Of a stretch of DNA of 64,000 nucleotides, positions 11,055-20,558 are shown in pieces. The translations under genes were made by a program, and so were the position numbers. The notes below the pieces were generated by a model. It had not been told where the DNA came from, ran no database searches, and saw only the letters and a list, made by a program, of their open reading frames with translations. Positions within the stretch are counted from its first letter, which is position 1. Every line of letters starts with the position of its first letter. Source of the DNA: Alphaproteobacteria bacterium (GTDB lineage: Bacteria; Pseudomonadota; Alphaproteobacteria; Rs-D84); the NCBI GenBank assembly GCA_031549365.1, contig JAVBPX010000001.1, positions 137,157-201,156 on the forward strand. Reading direction: 5' to 3'.

Positions 11055-11834
11055 ATGAAAAATAATTTTTTTAACGAACAATCTTTAAATTCTGATATTA
11101 AAACTCAGATTATCTTAGCTACATTTAAACTTTGGCTTCAAGACAATAAAAAGGAACAAAATCTATCTTATATTGATCTATTTTCAGGGCCTGGCATATA
11201 TGATGATGGAACATTATCTACACCGATATGTATTTTACAGGAAATTTGCAATAATAAGAGAATGGCACAGAGATTCAATGTGATCTTAAATGATTATAAT
11301 GCAGAATTTATTGCAAAATTGCGTCGTATGATTTTGAATGTGAAAAATGCTAGGTTTATAAAAACTTTGGTTACTTCGATTGGTAATGCTGAAAGTTTTC
11401 AAAAGACCGTATCTAATAATGAACATATCTTCATGTTAATTGATCCTTGGGGATGGAAGGGTATAAATAGAAATTATATTAATAATATGTTATTAAATAA
11501 GGACTGTGATATTGCGGTGATGTTTAATTTTAATCAGTTTAATCGGTTTATGAATTTTGATATCGCAGATGAATTGTTTAATGATTTGTTTGATAAAAAA
11601 ACTTTGCACGAAATACGTAAATTTTGTAGCACAAATCCAAAATCGGAAAGAGAACAATTCGTGATAGATAAATTTGTGAAAATGGTTTGTAAAAATTGTG
11701 AAAATTGTAATTACACGCCATTTAAATTTAAGATGGAAAAATCGACGCGTACAAGCCATTATATTATTTTTATAATTCGTGATAAAGATAGATTTCAAGC
11801 AACGAAAACTTTGTTAAATCAATACTTGGCTTGA
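11055..11834 (+). CDS. Three-Cys-motif partner protein (TcmP-like, methyltransferase-like fold)
   Basis: YIDLFSGPG...STP, LIDPWG motifs; adjacent to DUF5131, its usual partner. Confidence 0.8.
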   Translation: MKNNFFNEQSLNSDIKTQIILATFKLWLQDNKKEQNLSYIDLFSGPGIYDDGTLSTPICILQEICNNKRMAQRFNVILNDYNAEFIAKLRRMILNVKNARFIKTLVTSIGNAESFQKTVSNNEHIFMLIDPWGWKGINRNYINNMLLNKDCDIAVMFNFNQFNRFMNFDIADELFNDLFDKKTLHEIRKFCSTNPKSEREQFVIDKFVKMVCKNCENCNYTPFKFKMEKSTRTSHYIIFIIRDKDRFQATKTLLNQYLA

Positions 11835-11865
11835 AAAATAATATCGTTTCTGGCATAATGTGAAT

Positions 11866-12600
11866 ATGGCAGAAAAATCTAAACTTGAATGGACGGATGC
11901 AACGTGGAACCCAGTTGTTGGATGTACAAAGTACAGCGATGGGTGTATAAATTGTTATGCAAAACCAATTGCAGAACGTTTGTGTAGACAAGGAGTTTTT
12001 GGATACGAAAATGGTTTTAAAATGACATTGCGTCCAGAGCGTTTGGAAATTCCATTGCATTGGAAAAAACCAAGATTAATATTTGTAGACTCCATGTGCG
12101 ATTTATTTCACGATGATGTGCCATTAGAATATATTCAGAAAGTTTTTGCAATAATGAAGCGTGCAGATTGGCATGTTTATACCATATTAACAAAACGATC
12201 AAAGCGTTTGCGTGAATTGGCGTCAAACCTTGAATGGATGCCGCATGTTGTAATGGGTGTAACGATTGAATCCGATAAATATCGTGATAGGCTGGATGAT
12301 TTGAAGGCTGTGCCTGCATATATGCGATATTTATCATTGGAGCCATTGTTGGGACCAATTAACCGATTGGATTTGGATGGAATTGATTGGGTTATTGCTG
12401 GTGGAGAATCCGGACCAAATGCACGGCAACTGGATACAAATTGGGTCAGAGAAATTCGCGATTGGACATTGGAACAAAAAGCTGCGTTTTGGTTTAAACA
12501 GTATAGCGAGTATGGGGGACAGCATAAAGACCCTATTTTAGATGGGGAAAAATATAAGCAATTTCCAGATTTTAAAACCGGAAAACCGAGTCTGTTTTAA
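11866..12600 (+). CDS. DUF5131 / phage Gp37-Gp68 family three-Cys protein
   Basis: EWTDATWNPVVGCTKYSDGCINCYA, FVDSMCDLFH, LTKR, SLEPLLG, WVIAGGESG, FKQ. Confidence 0.92.
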   Translation: MAEKSKLEWTDATWNPVVGCTKYSDGCINCYAKPIAERLCRQGVFGYENGFKMTLRPERLEIPLHWKKPRLIFVDSMCDLFHDDVPLEYIQKVFAIMKRADWHVYTILTKRSKRLRELASNLEWMPHVVMGVTIESDKYRDRLDDLKAVPAYMRYLSLEPLLGPINRLDLDGIDWVIAGGESGPNARQLDTNWVREIRDWTLEQKAAFWFKQYSEYGGQHKDPILDGEKYKQFPDFKTGKPSLF

Positions 12601-12803: not shown

Positions 12804-13119
12804 AGAAATTATTAAAAAGATAAATTATCGTCTGGGTACAAATGCGGATAAAATAAAACTCATTGAAAAAAACTATAATCGTCCGAATATTGAAGAATAT
12901 TTGCAAATGTTTTCAAAAAACATGGATGGAGTAGATGAGACCAGAATTGCCCACTTTTATTTGAAATATTGCGATTTCAAACATTCCAATGTACTGACGT
13001 GTTTAGAAGGACAAATACTTGATTTTCAGGTTGAACGCGTTATTACAGTAATGGTTATGCTTGTTACATATTTGAGTATGGCAAAATTAGAGCCCTATGT
13101 ACATCCTGTCGGTATTTAA
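12799..13119 (+). pseudogene. Headless gene fragment fused to the DUF488 remnant
   Basis: Frame is open from ~12799 (NEEIIKKINYRLGTNADKIK...) to 13119, with no start codon or RBS at its beginning. Confidence 0.45.
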
Positions 13120-13177
13120 ATATCAATTATCCAGTAGGAAAATACTATTATGGATCAATGCTGTTAGTGAGACTTTC

Positions 13178-13206
13178 TTGACTTTTTAACATTATAATAG
13201 TAGCAT
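13178..13206 (+). promoter_or_regulatory. Promoter of class I LysRS
   Basis: TTGACT-17 bp-TAGCAT; GAGG RBS before ATG 13232. Confidence 0.6.
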
Positions 13207-13231
13207 CCTTTGTGAGAAAAATGAGGTTTAA

Positions 13232-14824
13232 ATGTCGGATAACAATGCCATTCATTGGGCGGATTTTATTGCAGAGCGAATAATTCGTGAAAAAGGCGAT
13301 AAAGATTTATATACTTTGGCCAGCGGAATTACCCCGTCTGGGACAATTCATATTGGAAAATTTCGCGAGATTATAACCACCGAATTGGTGTCCCGGGCGT
13401 TGGTTCGCATGGGGAAAAAGGTACGTTTTATTTATTCTTGGGATGATTATGATACTTTTCGCAAAGTGCCGGGCGATATGCCACAGCAAGAGATGTTAAA
13501 AGAATTATTGTATCAGCCGATTGTCGATATTCCAGATGTTTACGGAACAGAAAGTTCTTATGCTCGGCATAACGAAGTGTCGTTGGAACGTATTGCTCCG
13601 GTATTGGGCATAACAAATATTGAATTTATTTATCAAAGTCGGATGTATCGTAGTGGCGAATATAATGATTTGATTATAAAGGTTATGGATTCGCGAGATA
13701 AAATTCGTGATATTTTACAGACATCTAAAAGCCAGGGGATGGATGAAGAGTTTTATCCTATTGCAACTTATTGCAGCAATTGCAATCGTGACCGAATTGT
13801 TTTTTCAAATTATAATACATCAGATAAAACAGTTGATTATAAGTGTAAGTTATGCAACCACACGGAAAAGTTAAATTTACGCGATTCAAGGCGGCTGAAA
13901 TTGCCTTGGCGAATTGATTGGCCAATGCGTTGGGCATTTGAAAATGTTGATTTTGAACCAGGTGGGACAGATCATTCTTCGGCTGGGGGCAGTTTTGATA
14001 CCAGCAAAGTAATCGTTAGTGAGATTTTTGGAGGGGCGTCTCCGGTTTATGCAAAATATGCATTTGTATTGCCAAAGGGTGAAAGCAAAAAGATGTCTTC
14101 GTCAATTGGTAACGGGTTTTCTGTGGAAAGCGTTTTGCAGGTTTATGAACCAGAAATGATACGTTGGTTTTTTGCTTCGTATAAACCAGATGCGCAGTTC
14201 AGTATGGCTTTTGACATTGATGTTTTGAAGAATTACGAAGCATTTGACCGAATGGAACGCGTGGTTTATGGATTGGAAGATGTGAATGATGACAGGCGTG
14301 CAGTGCAGCGGCGTATTTATGAAATGTCTCAGATAAATTTTGATGGAAAGATTCCGGAACAGATGCCTTTTCAGCCGAGTTTTAGGCACCTGTGTAATCA
14401 GTTGCAAATAAACGAATTTGATATCGAAAAAACCAGAGCATATTACGCCCACCAAATCAAAAATGACATCGATGAACAACGGTATCAAGAAAGGTCCAAA
14501 TGCGCAGTATTTTGGATACAAAATTGTGCTTCGGATGATTTCAAACTTATATTGAATTCCGAAAAACGCAATGACATGACATTGTCGACAGATGAAAAAA
14601 AGTTCGTGAATGACTTGCACAAAATGTTGGAGATTGATTGGGACAATTTAGATGACGAACGCGTCTTACAAAGTAAGGTCGGTGAATTAATTAAGGCCAA
14701 CGGATTGGAAGTACTAAATGCGTATAAACTGTTATATCAGTTACTGGTCAATCGGGACCAAGGACCAAAGCTGGCCGGATTTATTTTGGGTATTGGCAAG
14801 GATAAGATTCTGAATTTGTTGTAA
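13232..14824 (+). CDS. lysK: Lysine--tRNA ligase, class I (LysRS1)
   Basis: HWAD, ASGITPSGTIHIG, SWDDYD.FRKVP, two CxxC, KLPWRIDWPMRW, KMSSS, GPKLAGF. Confidence 0.95.
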   Translation: MSDNNAIHWADFIAERIIREKGDKDLYTLASGITPSGTIHIGKFREIITTELVSRALVRMGKKVRFIYSWDDYDTFRKVPGDMPQQEMLKELLYQPIVDIPDVYGTESSYARHNEVSLERIAPVLGITNIEFIYQSRMYRSGEYNDLIIKVMDSRDKIRDILQTSKSQGMDEEFYPIATYCSNCNRDRIVFSNYNTSDKTVDYKCKLCNHTEKLNLRDSRRLKLPWRIDWPMRWAFENVDFEPGGTDHSSAGGSFDTSKVIVSEIFGGASPVYAKYAFVLPKGESKKMSSSIGNGFSVESVLQVYEPEMIRWFFASYKPDAQFSMAFDIDVLKNYEAFDRMERVVYGLEDVNDDRRAVQRRIYEMSQINFDGKIPEQMPFQPSFRHLCNQLQINEFDIEKTRAYYAHQIKNDIDEQRYQERSKCAVFWIQNCASDDFKLILNSEKRNDMTLSTDEKKFVNDLHKMLEIDWDNLDDERVLQSKVGELIKANGLEVLNAYKLLYQLLVNRDQGPKLAGFILGIGKDKILNLL

Positions 14825-14828
14825 TTCA

Positions 14829-15593
14829 TTACCTTTCTTGTATGTGCTTTCCCATAATGCACTGGCGAGCGATGATTTTTTTGATGTTACTGCCGACAAG
14901 TTGCGATGTTAGAGGGCAATGATAGCTTTTTTTGAAATTTTCAGTGCATTGTTGTAAAGTTTCTGTAAAATTTGGTTTATAAAATTTTCCAATTTCTATA
15001 CCCACAGGGGTGTTTTCAAGATTTCCCTTTGCTATTTCGTTATCAAAATTTTGTTTTGTAGTCGCAATTATATGTTTATTATCAGTGGTATGCAAGTGTG
15101 GTTCAGCCCTCTCCCATTGCGGTTGTGTAGATACAAATTTATCGGCCTCTTGCTTGTATGTTGAGTGTAATAGTGGACTATCTTTTAGTATTATTTTAGG
15201 TAAGTGCAACACCCATAAAATAATTCGAGCATATTGAAATTGCGATAATATGCAATCAGTTAATACGCATGAAGAACTCATAATTGACGGTAGAGAATCT
15301 TTAATGTTATTTGCAATGTATATGAGATCTGAAAGGCATTCTTTGTCTAGGCAAAATCCAAGGTGGTCAAAATCCTTTTGAAGGTCGTAATGCAGTTTCT
15401 TCATGTATTCAAGAAATTTTTTTTCTTGTTCGTGGTTGGATTTTTTTAGTAATATAAAAGTGTCAACATCTGAATTTGTTTTATCTTCACCTCGAGCAGT
15501 TGAGCCACATATAAATGAAAACTCTAGATTGTCTCCGAATATCTCTCGGGTATCTAAGTCCAATTGTTTTATCTGTTTTTTTGTTATTTTCAT
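14829..15593 (-). CDS. Pol-beta-superfamily nucleotidyltransferase with an unknown Cys-containing C-terminal region
   Basis: ICGSTARGEDKTNSDVDTF is the GS..RG....SDxD signature. Confidence 0.8.
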   Translation of the reverse strand: MKITKKQIKQLDLDTREIFGDNLEFSFICGSTARGEDKTNSDVDTFILLKKSNHEQEKKFLEYMKKLHYDLQKDFDHLGFCLDKECLSDLIYIANNIKDSLPSIMSSSCVLTDCILSQFQYARIILWVLHLPKIILKDSPLLHSTYKQEADKFVSTQPQWERAEPHLHTTDNKHIIATTKQNFDNEIAKGNLENTPVGIEIGKFYKPNFTETLQQCTENFKKSYHCPLTSQLVGSNIKKIIARQCIMGKHIQER

Positions 15594-15615
15594 TATTATT
15601 TACCAGTTGCTGTTT

Positions 15616-17073
15616 TTATAAGTATCTTACGATTTCTCTCTGAGGTAGAATTGGTTGTGGAGTAAATATGCCTTTGTAATAGATTCCAGATGCATGCTTT
15701 CCTATACCGCCATATGGTTTGTATCCATGCTCGAAATTGTGTAGATGGTCATTCACAAGTATAGAGTCCGGCATATGGATTTTTTCATCATAAAGTATGG
15801 CTATTGTTTCTTCTTTTAATTTTCCATAAACTGTCAAAAACATAGCTGATTCTTTATATTTTGTATTTTTGAAATAGTTTATAAGTTCATTTTCTGAATC
15901 ATAAGGTTGTATAAAGAATATTGGACAGAACAATTCTTCGTAATTAGCTCCTTCAGAGAGATCCTTTACTATTACCGTAGGATATATCATATTTTTTGAA
16001 GCGTCTATAAGACCTCCATAATAAATATTCTTCCGATTGTTATAAATTAGTTTTGCAGCATTTAATGCGTATCCATCTTTTGTATTAGGCATTATTATCG
16101 TGGATTTTTCAGGATTTGAATTACAGTTTTCATGAATTTCTTTTAATTTATTTATTAAAATTTCTTGAAAATCTGTTAAACAATCTCTTTTCACAAGTAA
16201 TGCATTTGGGGCGGCACAGTCTTGTCCTTGGTTGTATGTTCCAAGCTCGATACATGCTTCGACGGCTTCTTTGATATTTGACCGAAGATTTATTATAACC
16301 GGGTTTTGTCCAGCACCACCAAAGAAACAATATAACTCTTTGTTATACGATCTTTTTACTTTCTTCATGTTTTCATATGTACCTGTAAATATAAATGCCT
16401 TTATTTCATTTCGTGTAATATTGAGAAAATCCTCTCTTCCTCCATAGAATATTTCTATATTTGGCATACTTGATAAATTTAACAATTTATCTAGCTCTTT
16501 AAAAACGTCTTGAGAATCATTTGGATATCTAACATATACTTTCTTACAAATATACGATGGAACAAGAGCAAAACAAACAAAGGAATACAGCAATTGGTTT
16601 AAAGGCATAAATGACGCGATTGGTGCTTTCTCTTTTAAAAAGTATTCCTTATTTATGGTAAGATTTGTAAGAAGGTCTATTGATCTATCAATTTCATCAC
16701 ATATTGTATTATAGGTGGCATATGATGAAAGAGCTTTATAGATATCTTCTCTGCGCTGATTTAATTGAAACGAAAAATTGAGCGCGTCTGTTAAAATTTT
16801 ATCAAAGTCTAGATTATTTTCCACGTCTTTTTTAGAAATATTTGTTCTTTGTCCAAACCAAGAGCCAATTTCCTTTTTACTGAGTTTCTCTGTTTTTACT
16901 ATAAGCCCTAAGTCATTTTTTTCATACTCCAGGCTGAGATTGTTAATATTGTGGAGTATATTATCTTTAGCTTTTGTATCCATCTCATCAAATTTGAGGA
17001 TAAAAGTCAGCCCATTTTTATCTTGTAAAATGGTTCCAATAGGCTGTTTCTTTTTCCTTACTATGAAGTCCAT
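15616..17073 (-). CDS. Divergent aldehyde-dehydrogenase-fold protein
   Basis: PLN (PWN), FTGT, GQNP, NQGQDC (catalytic Cys), EELFCP (EEIFGP), PYGG; AAGGAG RBS. Confidence 0.85.
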   Translation of the reverse strand: MDFIVRKKKQPIGTILQDKNGLTFILKFDEMDTKAKDNILHNINNLSLEYEKNDLGLIVKTEKLSKKEIGSWFGQRTNISKKDVENNLDFDKILTDALNFSFQLNQRREDIYKALSSYATYNTICDEIDRSIDLLTNLTINKEYFLKEKAPIASFMPLNQLLYSFVCFALVPSYICKKVYVRYPNDSQDVFKELDKLLNLSSMPNIEIFYGGREDFLNITRNEIKAFIFTGTYENMKKVKRSYNKELYCFFGGAGQNPVIINLRSNIKEAVEACIELGTYNQGQDCAAPNALLVKRDCLTDFQEILINKLKEIHENCNSNPEKSTIIMPNTKDGYALNAAKLIYNNRKNIYYGGLIDASKNMIYPTVIVKDLSEGANYEELFCPIFFIQPYDSENELINYFKNTKYKESAMFLTVYGKLKEETIAILYDEKIHMPDSILVNDHLHNFEHGYKPYGGIGKHASGIYYKGIFTPQPILPQREIVRYL

Positions 17074-17104
17074 ATTTTCTCCTTGATTAATGTGGACCTT
17101 AAGT

Positions 17105-18604
17105 TTATCTCAACTTTATTTTTTTTAACATGGGAAATGTTAAAACATCTCTGATATTAGATGAGTTTGTTAACATCATGGCGAGGCGATCTGCACCTAT
17201 TCCCATGCCTCCTGTAGGGGGCATACCGTATTCTAAAGCTGTAAGAAAGGCTTCATCCATTTGCATTGCTTCAGGATCATCTGAAAGAGATGCTTGTTCT
17301 TCGAATTTTTTTCTTTGATCTATTGGATTTGATAATTCTGAGTAAGCTTCACCAAATTCAATGCCGCCAACATAGAGCATAAATCTTTCAGAAAGACGTG
17401 GGTTTTGTCGATGTATTTTTGTCAGCGGAGATATATCATATGGAACATCCATTACGAAAGTTGGTTGAATAAGAGTTTTTTCGACTTTTTCTTCAAATAT
17501 AGTTTCTACTACTTTACCCCAAGATTCAGTTCCCTTGAGTCGAATTTTGTGTTTTTGGGCAATGCTATGAATTTCCCTATCGCTCATGTTTATAAGATCT
17601 TCGTTCAGCGCTTCTGATGCTGCGTCTACCATTGGTAATCTTTTAAATGGTTTTTCAAGGTCTATTAAGGCATCTTTCCAAGTAATGTGGAGAGAGCTGT
17701 TGACAGCCATAGATGAATCTCGCAGCAATCTTTCTGCGAGAATCATCATGTCAAAATAGTCTTTATAAGAGCCATATATATCTAGCATTGTGAATTCTGG
17801 ACTGTGGCGATTATCAATACCTTCATTGCGGAAATTTTTACCAATTTCAAACACTCGAGGAATGCCTCCAACAATGAGCCGCTTTAGTTCAAGTTCAGAT
17901 GCTATCCTGAGATAAAAATCGTCTTTAAGAGAATTATAATGTGTAGTAAATGGAGCAGCATTTGCACCGGCTTTTACTGGGTGAAGTATAGGTGTTTCTA
18001 CCTCTATATATCCCTCATCGTGCATTACTTCGCGTATAGCATACATTGCTTTCGCCCTATTGAGAACAACATCCCGAGAGTTTTTGTTTACTATAAGATC
18101 TACGGATTTATTGCGGTATCTTTCTTCGGAGTCTGTTAGACCGTGGTATTTTTCAGGAAGAATATTCAATGATTTTGACAGCATTGTTACTTCCAGAGGA
18201 GTAACAGAAACTGCTCCTCGCAAAGTTTTTTTAATTCCTCCCAAAACACCAATTATATCACCAATGTCAAGATTTTTAAGCATGTTATTAAATTGTGTAT
18301 CTGCTTTTGGATTTTCATTGCAAATTTGAATTTTTCCGGATTCATCTTCAACATCGATGAACATTCCGGAATTTCGGATTGCCATAATTCTTCCTGCAAT
18401 TTTTACAATGTCTTTTGTATCCGCTGTCTTTTCACCAGGTTGAAGGTGGCCAAATTCAGCTATTATATTACTGGCAAGATGCGTTGGTTTGTATATGTGT
18501 GGATATGCGTTTATTCCTTGAGATTCGATGTCTTTAAGTTTTTGAATCCTTATTTCTTTTAAAGAATTTATTGGTGTCTTATTATCTTTTTTTTGATTTT
18601 GCAT
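17105..18604 (-). CDS. lysS: Lysine--tRNA ligase, class II paralogue (full length, with anticodon OB-fold)
   Basis: AGRIM, LPEKYHGL, EVETP, YLRIASEL.LKRL, FRNEG motif 2, EYGMPPTGGMGIGADRL motif 3. Confidence 0.93.
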   Translation of the reverse strand: MQNQKKDNKTPINSLKEIRIQKLKDIESQGINAYPHIYKPTHLASNIIAEFGHLQPGEKTADTKDIVKIAGRIMAIRNSGMFIDVEDESGKIQICNENPKADTQFNNMLKNLDIGDIIGVLGGIKKTLRGAVSVTPLEVTMLSKSLNILPEKYHGLTDSEERYRNKSVDLIVNKNSRDVVLNRAKAMYAIREVMHDEGYIEVETPILHPVKAGANAAPFTTHYNSLKDDFYLRIASELELKRLIVGGIPRVFEIGKNFRNEGIDNRHSPEFTMLDIYGSYKDYFDMMILAERLLRDSSMAVNSSLHITWKDALIDLEKPFKRLPMVDAASEALNEDLINMSDREIHSIAQKHKIRLKGTESWGKVVETIFEEKVEKTLIQPTFVMDVPYDISPLTKIHRQNPRLSERFMLYVGGIEFGEAYSELSNPIDQRKKFEEQASLSDDPEAMQMDEAFLTALEYGMPPTGGMGIGADRLAMMLTNSSNIRDVLTFPMLKKIKLR

Positions 18605-18626
18605 AGATATACCTTTTTATACTTTT

Positions 18627-18699
18627 TGGGGGGCGGTCCGGATTTGAACCGTACCTCTGAGGGAAAACTCAGCGTTCTGCCTAATTATACTACCCGCCC
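18627..18699 (-). tRNA. Non-canonical tRNA-like gene (6-nt anticodon loop UUUUCC; Lys-like?)
   Basis: Reverse complement is GGGCGGGTAGTATAATTAGGCAGAACGCTGAGTTTTCCCTCAGAGGTACGGTTCAAATCCGGACCGCCCCCCA. It has a GGGCGG/CCGCCC acceptor, D-loop GG, CTGAG/CTCAG stem, GGTTCAAATCC T-arm and encoded CCA. Confidence 0.85.
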
Positions 18700-18782
18700 T
18701 ATAATTGTGATGAAGTGATCCCATCAACTTATCATTGTTTATGTCAAAAGCAATTTAAATGTCAATAATTATTTTTTGTTAT

Positions 18783-19931
18783 TTATTTGTTATTTAATAT
18801 AATTAATGGCACTTGCATTTCGGATGCTGTCCCGCCTGCATGTTCAGATGCTGGTGAGCCAAACTCTTCCCAAGCTTTTTGATTTTGATGCAATGATTTG
18901 TTTCCTATTCCAATTGCGACATAGTCCCCGATTGATTCATCTTCCAGCACTCTATTCTTGGCAGAATACCAGTGAAGGTAGTTTGTTTTAAAAGTTTCCT
19001 TATTGATCAGCAAAAAATCTTTCTCCGAAAATATTTCATAAAATATTCTTTCAAAGCTATTTTTAGCCTCTGGTTTTACGAAAAATTGTGTACAACGCGC
19101 CTCACATGAAATCGGCATTATCAGAGTGTCAGCAATACCCGTAAAATCTTCGATAAATAAGGGCAAAGTATCAATATGACCGTGATCAGCAGTTATGATG
19201 AATAATGTATCTGGGCAATTATTTTGCAAATTTATTATTGCATCTCGTATATTGCAGATACAATTTCTGGCTTCGCCAGACAAAATTCCGTGATCATGGT
19301 TAGTGCTATCTGGCTCCGGCCAATACGCGTATATGTAATTTTTATTGGCATTTTTTGTATTTGCTATTTTTTCAATAGTTGAACACCATTTCTCAACTGT
19401 ATTATGCTCTGGTGTAATAAACTGAGGCATAACCTCAAAAGCGCTCCATTCGGAAATATCATTGATTTGGTCAACAAGTAATGCTGGCATTTTTTCCAAC
19501 GGAGGCTTCGTAAGATGAGATGATTCACCACTATAAAAGTCACAATTAGTAAAATTTTCGACAATCTCTCCAGATTCTTTATAATATTGCGACCATCCCA
19601 ATAACCCATGTGATACAGGCAACAGCCCCGTGCGCAAAGTTGTTGTGGCGGCAACCGTAGTAGAAGGAACTATTGTATCAATAGTATCATATTTGTTTTT
19701 ATAAAAATAGTCTGTCACAGAATCGCTTAATACATCCAGCTGTTCTGTCCCCATTCCGTCTAGGACTATAAGAGCTATGTTTTTGTACACTTCCGATGAC
19801 CACGAATTTATGATCATTGGATGCGACTCATAATTTGGACATAGTCCAACAATTTTTTGTATTGCAGATGTTATTGATGTTATATCGTATTTCATGAGGT
19901 ACATATTAGCAATGACATATCTTGAAGTCAA
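18783..19931 (-). CDS. Alkaline phosphatase superfamily (nucleotide pyrophosphatase/phosphodiesterase-like) protein; start uncertain (ATG 19895 or 19904 possible)
   Basis: LDGMG, PSTT nucleophile, DSTNHDHG, TADHG, EHAG. Confidence 0.88.
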   Translation of the reverse strand: MTSRYVIANMYLMKYDITSITSAIQKIVGLCPNYESHPMIINSWSSEVYKNIALIVLDGMGTEQLDVLSDSVTDYFYKNKYDTIDTIVPSTTVAATTTLRTGLLPVSHGLLGWSQYYKESGEIVENFTNCDFYSGESSHLTKPPLEKMPALLVDQINDISEWSAFEVMPQFITPEHNTVEKWCSTIEKIANTKNANKNYIYAYWPEPDSTNHDHGILSGEARNCICNIRDAIINLQNNCPDTLFIITADHGHIDTLPLFIEDFTGIADTLIMPISCEARCTQFFVKPEAKNSFERIFYEIFSEKDFLLINKETFKTNYLHWYSAKNRVLEDESIGDYVAIGIGNKSLHQNQKAWEEFGSPASEHAGGTASEMQVPLIILNNK

Positions 19932-20558
19932 CCGCGTATTTGGTTGAAAGTTGAGCGGAATTCTAGTTTCGTGGGAATATTGGTTGTTTTTATGTTTTGG
20001 TAATGAATTTTCATTGTTATTTAAAATAAATTCCCTGTTAGGGTTTTAGGGAATTTGGGGTGATGTGGGTAGTGGATGCCGCGGTGTGGTTGGGGTTGTG
20101 AATTTGGGACCAATTGGTAAAATGCGATTTTAGGGGCAAAACCACAAAATTTCCCTGTAAATTCCCTGATGTTGTTTGTGTGATTAATTTTGCTGTGTGG
20201 AATCGCGTAACCTTGCGATGCACACATCAATTCCGTGCTAATAACGCACGTCATTGTGTGTTTATATGCTCGGTTTCCCTGATAATCGGTTGGATGTTGG
20301 TGGGGTGTTGGATTATTCGGGGAAATAATCGGGATAAGTGATTTATGAGGTGTTTATCATGTTTAGTATGCTCTACACCAATAACATTTACACCTCCGCC
20401 AGAATTGGCCGTTTTATTTTTATCCGCGCGCGGCCCCGAAAACTCGCGGCTTTACTTTTTATTTTCACAGTGGTATGGTGATTTATATCAAAAATCTGCA
20501 GATTTGGTTCTCCTTACATACGATTACCATTTTTGCACTGTGAACTTTGGGGGCTGTT

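Follow-up and report, generated by a model that had tools for sequence, protein, structure and literature searches.

Glutamyl-tRNA reductase (GluTR), a cysteine-dependent NAD(P)H enzyme, converts the glutamyl-tRNA made by an aminoacyl-tRNA synthetase (aaRS) into glutamate-1-semialdehyde, and the non-proteinogenic glycine tRNAs of staphylococci are cell-wall donors that evade EF-Tu through deviations in the T stem and D loop and are still charged by the synthetase. The thrS operator of Escherichia coli is a hairpin resembling an anticodon arm, placed just upstream of the ribosome-binding site (RBS) of its cognate synthetase. Here, we describe a 73-nt tRNA-like gene directly upstream of a lysyl-tRNA synthetase (LysRS) gene in the genome of an alphaproteobacterium of the lineage Rs-D84 (assembly GCA_031549365.1), located in a stretch of 64,000 nt (contig JAVBPX010000001.1, positions 137,157 to 201,156; hereafter the window), and compare it with these and two further systems. 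A precedent for lysylation is tRNAOther of Bacillus cereus, a pseudo-tRNA reported to be charged with lysine by class I plus class II LysRS. Irregular tRNAs, allo-tRNAs and tRNA pseudogenes have also been reported on mobile DNA, and their charging by aaRS paralogues has been raised (Mukai et al. 2017, PMC5389517).

Our tentative preference is to read the element as a non-decoding lysine acceptor dedicated to a module formed by the adjacent class II enzyme, LysRS-A, and a protein of the aldehyde dehydrogenase (ALDH) superfamily encoded next to it.

A sub-canonical tRNA-like gene upstream of lysS-A

The element runs from position 18699 (G1) to 18627 (the A of CCA) on the minus strand, as delimited with ARAGORN, Infernal/Rfam and reading of the sequence, and its minus-strand letters are GGGCGGG UA GUAU AAUUAGGCA GAAC G CUGAG UUUUCC CUCAG AGG UACGG UUCAAAU CCGGA CCGCCC C CCA. 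A preliminary description had seen a 73-nt cloverleaf with a 6-nt UUUUCC loop, together with its stems, mismatches, C discriminator, CCA and a spacing of 22 nt to the next gene, all of which we confirm on the minus strand, and had expected a low-scoring or undetermined call, which is what the programs returned. ARAGORN reports 'tRNA-??? anticodon (tt)' at 18628-18700(-), or 'tRNA-?(Lys|Glu)' in its full output, with a model of 6 acceptor pairs, a 3-nt spacer, a mismatched D stem, an anticodon stem of 5 bp with a 6-nt loop, a variable region of 3 nt and an A.G mismatch in the T stem. Aligned end to end to the Rfam tRNA family (RF00005) by Infernal, the element scores 28.6 bits (E = 6.8e-4; search space 551 nt x 4227 families), below the gathering score of 29 that marks a canonical elongator tRNA, while the four canonical tRNAs of the window reach 73, 70.3, 57.7 and 39.5 bits. 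The element is tRNA-derived beyond chance yet clearly sub-canonical.

In the anticodon arm, the stem CUGAG/CUCAG closes the loop UUUUCC, which has 6 nt, is all pyrimidine and lacks purine 37, in place of the canonical loop of 7 nt with U33 and purine 37; the loop holds no CCA triplet. The acceptor stem consists of six clean pairs (GGGCGG/CCGCCC) with G7 opposite an A, and the T arm of the stem UACGG/CCGGA, with an A.G mismatch (50-64), and the loop UUCAAAU. Counted on the 3' side, the acceptor/T branch measures 11 positions, either 6+5 with the A.G or 7 (with the G.A)+4, instead of the canonical 12 bp. The D arm pairs GUAU with GAAC across an A.A mismatch and has GG in its loop, and the 3' end carries discriminator C73 followed by the encoded CCA. 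The elbow nucleotides U8, A14 and G18G19, a T loop of the form UUCRANY and the 3' CCA are all present. All three length defects lie in loops or junctions, leaving the acceptor and anticodon helices undisrupted, and the G+C content of the element is 56% vs 33% in the surrounding stretch. The earlier claim that such an RNA would be unsuited to ribosomal decoding follows from these features, and ARAGORN and Infernal agree with it.

The assembly (911 kb, 15 contigs, 39% G+C, 97.6% complete) encodes 44 canonical tRNAs that cover all 20 amino acids, including tRNA-Lys(UUU) and tRNA-Lys(CUU), both with A73, and it holds three LysRS genes: the class I gene lysK and the class II gene for LysRS-A in the window, and a second class II gene, for LysRS-B, on another contig (C5:19866-21332(-)). 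Since the canonical tRNA set is full and two other LysRS genes are present, the element is surplus to translation. Judged from its sequence, it is a genuine non-decoding tRNA-derived gene. ARAGORN found no tmRNA gene in this 97.6%-complete assembly, for which no covariance-model check was made.

We compared the locus with independently assembled reads. Positions 13000-20200 are matched, without a single difference or gap, by a 9512-nt Logan contig (depth 32.6) from DNA run X1, which may be the source sample, and 18549-18766 by a 218-nt contig (depth 2.5, 0 differences) from RNA library X2 of the same study, made from another sample. No sign was found in either the DNA or the RNA-library contig, both identical to the assembly with no indels listed, of the 1-nt assembly deletion that would restore a 7-nt loop. 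In the RNA library, one contig extends from the element 56 nt into lysS-A and the next reaches 18235, which fits co-transcription.

Between the CCA and the start codon of lysS-A lies a spacer of 22 nt (18605-18626, minus strand) with an RBS-like AAAGG at 18616-18612, 10 nt after the CCA and 7 nt before the ATG at 18604. Neither this tight spacing nor the encoded CCA is a sign of a special role, as both are ordinary in this genome: CCA is encoded in 44/44 canonical tRNA genes, and a canonical tRNA-Gly(CCC) is followed after 20 nt by the RBS and ATG of a 320-aa KpsF/GutQ-like open reading frame (ORF; contig C1:27920-28976(+)). This arrangement suggests that co-transcription of tRNA and mRNA is routine in this genome. 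The D stem GUAU..GAAC also occurs in the genome's tRNA-Thr(GGU) (C6:48025-48098(-)), a gene with the A.A in its D stem, the T loop UCCGAUU, 19 pairs and a folding energy of -18.7 kcal/mol. In the lysS loci of 29 relatives, a tRNA-Gly(GCC) gene stands near the 5' end of lysS in 12, on the same strand in 7 of these, where, according to the ORF calls, it lies directly upstream at a distance of ~33-240 nt (L027, L030, L036, L037, L038, L042 and L044). A tRNA-lysS arrangement, with tRNA-Gly(GCC), is thus conserved in same-family genomes.

A pattern scan of viral contigs returned an unrelated odd tRNA-like element of ~93 nt (L181:6118-6211(+)) with an acceptor stem of 7 bp, a T arm, CCA and the same GAG-UUUUCC-CUC hairpin; its sole Rfam match is a weak one to tRNA-Sec (19 bits), and ARAGORN does not call it.

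LysRS-A, the ALDH-like enzyme and their operon

The gene following the element, lysS-A (17105-18604, minus strand), encodes a complete class II LysRS of 499 aa (Pfam PF00152 and PF01336), which scores 540.8 bits against TIGR00499 (cut-off 427.6) and, in an alignment to LysRS of the PDB, keeps motif 2 (FRNEG) and motif 3 (GxGxGxDR), as a class II LysRS should. In a tree of 47 class II (LysRS2) sequences it sits on a long branch (0.51) with just three metagenomic proteins (P0002-P0004; 59-62% identity). Searches of 328 genomes of the order and 401 of the class yielded no homologue that exceeded 52% identity. Locus searches for relatives of LysRS-A on genome contigs reached at most 48% identity and, on metagenome contigs with P0003 as query, at most 53%, with the contig of P0003 itself not among the matches. 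To judge from the tree and these searches, LysRS-A is a divergent xenolog. LysRS-B, which in the same tree falls inside the same-family clade with 76% identity to one relative, is by that placement vertically inherited.

Among 157 columns conserved to at least 95% in 117 other LysRS2 sequences, LysRS-A deviates at 19, and each of 25 controls at 0-10. Eight of the 19 deviations are common to the three clade mates, and five of these lie in the catalytic core, namely H223Y (in THHN), N268S (S/L in RHNPEF), E275D (EFTMxE), E409M (RFE) and N419E (following xNA). These positions are 96-100% conserved in the 117 other sequences and are changed clade-wide in P0001-P0004, and the substitutions may mean a rearranged metal or substrate site. 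The 11 deviations confined to LysRS-A affect 7 of 49 columns in the anticodon-binding N-domain and hinge, including a change of QRY to NKS, vs 4 of 108 catalytic columns (one-sided Fisher p = 0.023), an enrichment that would at best be a weak signal.

The class I gene lysK (13232-14824, plus strand) lies convergent with lysS-A and its neighbours and encodes a complete enzyme of 530 aa (TIGR00467, 478 bits), which shares 70-79% identity with its orthologues from three genomes of the same family. A class I LysRS occurs in 10 of the 40 relatives searched, mostly those without the class II enzyme, and across the order the two classes are patchy and mostly mutually exclusive. In the window, lysK, a class II LysRS gene and the tRNA-like gene are found within 5.5 kb.

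The second protein of the proposed module is an enzyme of 485 aa (15616-17073, minus strand) assigned to the ALDH superfamily by Pfam (E 8e-19) and by an AlphaFold2 model (pLDDT 88) with a TM-score of ~0.65 to many ALDHs. Its catalytic Cys286 (NQGQDC) is kept and is invariant in 13/13 aligned members of its family. In the family profile, compared with PDB ALDHs, the position of the Glu of the ELGG motif is occupied by Asn, so that the combination of Cys and ELGG Glu expected of a hydrolysing ALDH is incomplete. This Glu is the general base of deacylation in hydrolysing ALDHs, and Asn in its place is typical of acyl-transferring or reductase-type rather than hydrolysing members of the superfamily. 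Several members of the family also match the acyl-CoA reductase LuxC.

We found 94 members of this family (P0121-P0214, including the window protein), of which at least 68 have LysRS-derived parts. They comprise 76 proteins of 266-849 aa, with the window's own among them, and 18 of 850-1102 aa (from a search range of 850-2425 aa). Six of the 76 shorter members bear the source annotation "lysyl-tRNA synthetase class 1", and 50 have a C-terminal extension of at least 120 aa; in a profile alignment, 48 of these extensions share their end with class I LysRS (LysRS1) and match its final 140-190 residues (hhalign probability 96%, E 1e-9 to 7e-9). None of the homologues in this set has a longest contig of the same length as P0002-P0004, a weak hint that the ALDH-like gene is absent from the contigs of these LysRS-A relatives. 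P0150 contains the entire C-terminal half of LysRS1, and P0136, from Xenorhabdus, a catalytic fragment of it. Each of the 18 long members is a LysRS fusion, with a class I enzyme in 16 and a class II enzyme in two. In 13 of them an ALDH part is followed by LysRS1, which corresponds to nearly the whole LysRS1 of the window in 10 and to the catalytic part alone in three; in three others a LysRS1 catalytic domain is N-terminal and the ALDH part follows; and in two (P0205 and P0212) the ALDH part precedes a class II LysRS. The latter is complete in P0212, where it is 44% identical to LysRS-A and, like it, has Ser in place of the hinge Tyr, while in P0205 the catalytic core is degenerate and the OB anticodon-binding N-domain well kept. 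A genome of the same phylum (G899; 4.5 Mb) encodes a LysRS1-ALDH fusion of 939 aa (L179:8160-10979) followed by an MFS transporter, with a TetR gene and a saccharopine-dehydrogenase-like gene also beside the fusion.

The window holds the unfused, class II version of this LysRS/ALDH-like module. Fusion to either class of LysRS, or to the anticodon-binding part alone, argues that the members of the family act on lysyl-tRNA or with tRNA-Lys, and the ALDH-like clade is a candidate lysyl-tRNA-dependent reductase. Full-text searches of the literature returned nothing relevant on an aminoacyl- or lysyl-tRNA reductase, and no members of the family were found in a search of viral contigs. A homologue with 29% identity on a Bacillus thuringiensis plasmid lies in a cluster of the non-ribosomal peptide synthetase type, which shows no more than that secondary metabolism is among the settings of the wider family. 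The families of the MprF C-domain and FemAB are known consumers of lysyl- or other aminoacyl-tRNAs. As neither FemAB (PF02388) nor the MprF C-domain (PF09924) has a match in this genome, the ALDH-like enzyme is the sole candidate consumer of a lysyl-RNA in sight.

The run of minus-strand genes is closed by a Pol-beta-type nucleotidyltransferase of 254 aa (14829-15593), with gaps of 31 nt from lysS-A to the ALDH-like gene and 22 nt from there to the nucleotidyltransferase gene. On its other side, a gene resembling type I phosphodiesterases/nucleotide pyrophosphatases (18783-19931, minus strand) ends 83 nt upstream of the element, no terminator-like site is predicted between the two, and this gene may be the first of the operon. 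The order would be (phosphodiesterase?) - tRNA-like - lysS-A - ALDH-like - nucleotidyltransferase, with the element as the first RNA. The G+C content at third codon positions (GC3) is 0.29 in the nucleotidyltransferase gene, 0.25 in the ALDH-like gene and 0.26 in lysS-A, compared with 0.38 in lysK, 0.33 in lysS-B and 0.38-0.39 in secDF, and the ALDH-like gene is absent from 40/40 relatives. Given the divergence of LysRS-A, the low GC3 and this absence, the run from the tRNA-like gene to the nucleotidyltransferase gene looks like an acquired operon.

Promoter and terminator scans of the locus stayed at chance level, and a perfect TATAAT fell inside the D arm of the element. PADLOC gave just weak matches to the nucleotidyltransferase among the operon proteins, and Atlas searches with the nucleotidyltransferase and with the N-terminus of the ALDH-like protein gave nothing specific. 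Further along the stretch, a candidate defence pair of TcmP (TIGR04474) and DUF5131 genes (11055-12600(+)) matches the PADLOC candidate systems PDC-M30A/B and M41B, and the low G+C content of TcmP (27.6%) suggests that the 11-20 kb region is a variable island. In a search for the island boundary, the genes that adjoin lysK in relatives were located on different contigs, and no integrase was seen.

Possible roles of the element

As an acceptor dedicated to the LysRS-A/ALDH-like module, the element would be transcribed together with lysS-A, cut by RNase P at G18699 and trimmed on its 3' side to the encoded CCA. LysRS-A would lysylate it, recognising the U-run in the 6-nt loop through its N-terminal OB domain. 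Three features, namely the short loop, the branch of 11 positions and the mismatch at 50-64, would keep the lysyl ester from EF-Tu and the ribosome. The lysyl-RNA could then serve as the activated-lysine substrate of the ALDH-like enzyme, acting as a reductase of the thioester-forming, non-hydrolysing type. We lean towards this reading because the element is surplus to translation, heads the operon and offers a U-run to the anticodon domain of LysRS, and because its defects hit the sites of decoding and EF-Tu binding but spare the GC-rich acceptor helix, the CCA, G18G19 and the consensus of the T loop. The tie between the RNA and LysRS that the preliminary description proposed has thereby gained the surplus of tRNA-Lys and LysRS genes, the foreign lysS-A and the ALDH/LysRS operon as support, but no homologue of the RNA turned up in the relatives and loci searched. 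The fuller proposal, in which the operon is an orthogonal pair of carrier and class II LysRS that feeds a lysyl-tRNA reductase, an analogue of GluTR from the ALDH superfamily, is in our estimate rather unlikely. If true, a genome of 0.9 Mb would possess a tRNA-dependent route, kept apart from translation, to a lysine aldehyde or another metabolite derived from lysine.

Several observations weigh against a dedicated acceptor. The cloverleaf of the element, at -14.2 kcal/mol, is the weakest among the 45 tRNA and tRNA-like genes of the genome and lies 9.3 kcal/mol above the minimum free energy (MFE) fold, the second-largest gap among the 45, and the MFE fold contains 0/18 cloverleaf pairs, the sole such case. 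Both canonical tRNA-Lys have A73 where the element has C73, a C discriminator being found elsewhere in the genome only in tRNA-His, and UUC (Glu) is an equally good reading of the loop, which would then be the tRNA-Glu loop UUUUCAN minus A37. Homologue searches were negative throughout: BLASTN of 121 nt against 40 relatives gave matches of at most 34 bases and none with E < 0.004; ARAGORN made an odd call at the element's own locus alone among 30 lysS loci (29 relatives plus this one) and, in 112 further lysS loci, found two ordinary tRNAs ~3 kb off and no tRNA-like element; and a relaxed Infernal/Rfam scan of 11 loci found no homologue of the element. With no homologue in the searched sets, the RNA has neither conservation nor covariation in its favour. 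Further, no tRNA or tRNA-like match lies within ~10 kb of the one other LysRS/ALDH-like locus inspected, that of G899. Most members of the family carry LysRS anticodon-binding modules, which suggests that ordinary tRNA-Lys serves them and hence that a private RNA is no general requirement. On the side of the synthetase, LysRS-B has a similar tilt of its deviations towards the N-domain (6/6), and the excess of substitutions in LysRS-A could reflect relaxed constraint. The RNA-library contig has low depth (2.5) and no strand assignment, and DNA carry-over into that library is possible, as another contig runs across the junction at which lysK and the nucleotidyltransferase gene converge.

Many of these points are what would be expected of a vestigial pseudo-tRNA, a redundant tRNA carried with or beside the transferred lysS cassette and decaying by small deletions, of which at most an incidental RNase P processing site remains. 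We hold this to be almost as likely as a dedicated acceptor, with a cis-acting operator less likely than either. The score below the Rfam gathering threshold, the weakest cloverleaf of the 45 with a competing fold, and the status of the element as a singleton with no homologue in the searched relatives and loci all favour it, as do the many conserved sites at which LysRS-A itself has changed and the absence of such an RNA from the G899 module. The surroundings of the element are also ordinary in this respect, as tRNA genes upstream of lysS are common in the family (tRNA-Gly(GCC) in 12/29, 7 on the same strand) and tight spacing between tRNA and ORF occurs elsewhere in the genome. The argument of the preliminary description that intact stems and CCA speak for selection is weaker than it appeared, because every tRNA gene here encodes CCA. 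Other observations weigh against decay. The remaining helices are clean and GC-rich within an AT-rich spacer, and the length defects spare both of them. The GC3 of the cassette is unameliorated and its ORFs are intact, leaving little time for three deletions unless the RNA was already odd in the donor. No clear parent was found among the 44 tRNAs of the genome, the best global alignment scoring 18 vs a median best of 37 among the canonical tRNAs, and alignments to the family tRNA-Gly(GCC) and to a tRNA-Glu(UUC) were no better, so that the element is not recognisably derived from tRNA-Gly(GCC) or from any tRNA of this genome. A U-run in the anticodon loop beside lysS would, moreover, be an unlikely coincidence for a random relic.

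A further explanation, which we consider quite improbable, is a cis-acting tRNA mimic in the 5' leader of the lysS-A mRNA, where binding of LysRS-A or another LysRS would occlude the RBS, in autoregulation like that by the thrS operator of E. coli, or processing on the 3' side would set mRNA stability. The preliminary description had raised such an autoregulatory leader, and the position is compatible with it: the CCA precedes the AAAGG by 10 nt and the ATG by 22 nt, one RNA-library contig spans the element and the start of lysS-A, and an operator needs no 7-nt loop. No T-box matched at E <= 10 in 18400-18950 or at the gathering score in the window, and Rfam scans of the locus and window found no other known RNA leader. 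A similar spacing of 20 nt, however, is seen behind the canonical tRNA-Gly(CCC), a full acceptor stem with CCA invites cleavage by RNase P and 3' trimming, folding of the 192-nt leader gives no significant RBS-sequestering structure (z = -0.77), and a leader of this kind is missing from the lysS loci of all 29 relatives.

If the element decoded in spite of its loop, it might be a suppressor or frameshifting tRNA that reads AAA/AAG or GAA, and the CCA, the elbow nucleotides and the 5-bp anticodon stem would suit that role, which is nevertheless highly improbable given an all-pyrimidine 6-nt loop without purine 37, the 11-position branch, the T-stem mismatch, the sub-threshold tRNA score and the complete canonical set of the genome. 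Least probable is an assembly or sequencing artefact that removed 1 nt from the T-run of a normal tRNA: the loop does contain the homopolymer TTTT, but the depth-32.6 DNA contig from an independent assembler and the RNA-library contig from another sample match exactly, and adding back one U would remove neither C37 nor the short branch nor the mismatches, so that this explanation is already largely refuted.

Comparison with known systems

The LysRS/ALDH-like fusion family matters regardless of the role of the RNA and is the most valuable by-product of the analysis. It points to a use of lysyl-tRNA or lysyl-adenylate that has not been described and that would extend tRNA-dependent reduction beyond haem biosynthesis. 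Even if the RNA is a relic, the locus records the entry of an aaRS-containing metabolic module into a reduced genome, and with a functional RNA it would supply a natural orthogonal pair of an aaRS and a tRNA-like molecule as well.

The locus shares features with several described systems and departs from each. With the tRNAs of PMC5389517, the element has in common a non-canonical acceptor/T geometry and a setting in islands of accessory genes. Allo-tRNAs, however, take part in decoding, and their branch of 12 bp (8/4 or 9/3) and loop of 7 nt contrast with the 11 positions and 6-nt loop found here. The thrS operator consists of arms alone, without acceptor stem or CCA, and is conserved, whereas here a whole cloverleaf with CCA is present and no conservation is seen in the loci of 29 relatives. 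The element resembles the staphylococcal tRNA-Gly in concept, as an extra tRNA outside translation, a role here proposed; the staphylococcal molecules, however, have 7-nt loops and normal stems and feed FemXAB, while matches to FemAB and the MprF C-domain are absent from the present genome.

The setting of tRNAOther is similar in that class I LysRS, class II LysRS and a tRNA-like gene come together, here all within 5.5 kb. The anticodon of tRNAOther is that of Trp (CCA), its gene borders a pathogenicity island, and it is linked with T-box control of trpS1 and with larger regulatory RNAs, unlike the present element, which has a U-run in a 6-nt loop, heads a lysS operon and has an ALDH-like partner. 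If functional, the RNA would be the second independent LysRS-coupled tRNA-like molecule outside translation after tRNAOther, with a candidate consumer at hand.

GluTR, finally, has a fold of its own and acts on a normal tRNA-Glu, whereas the enzyme of this locus belongs to the ALDH superfamily and its proposed substrate is lysine. As a functional analogy, it would nevertheless stand close to the mechanism proposed here, in which an aminoacyl-tRNA serves as the activated substrate of a reductase.

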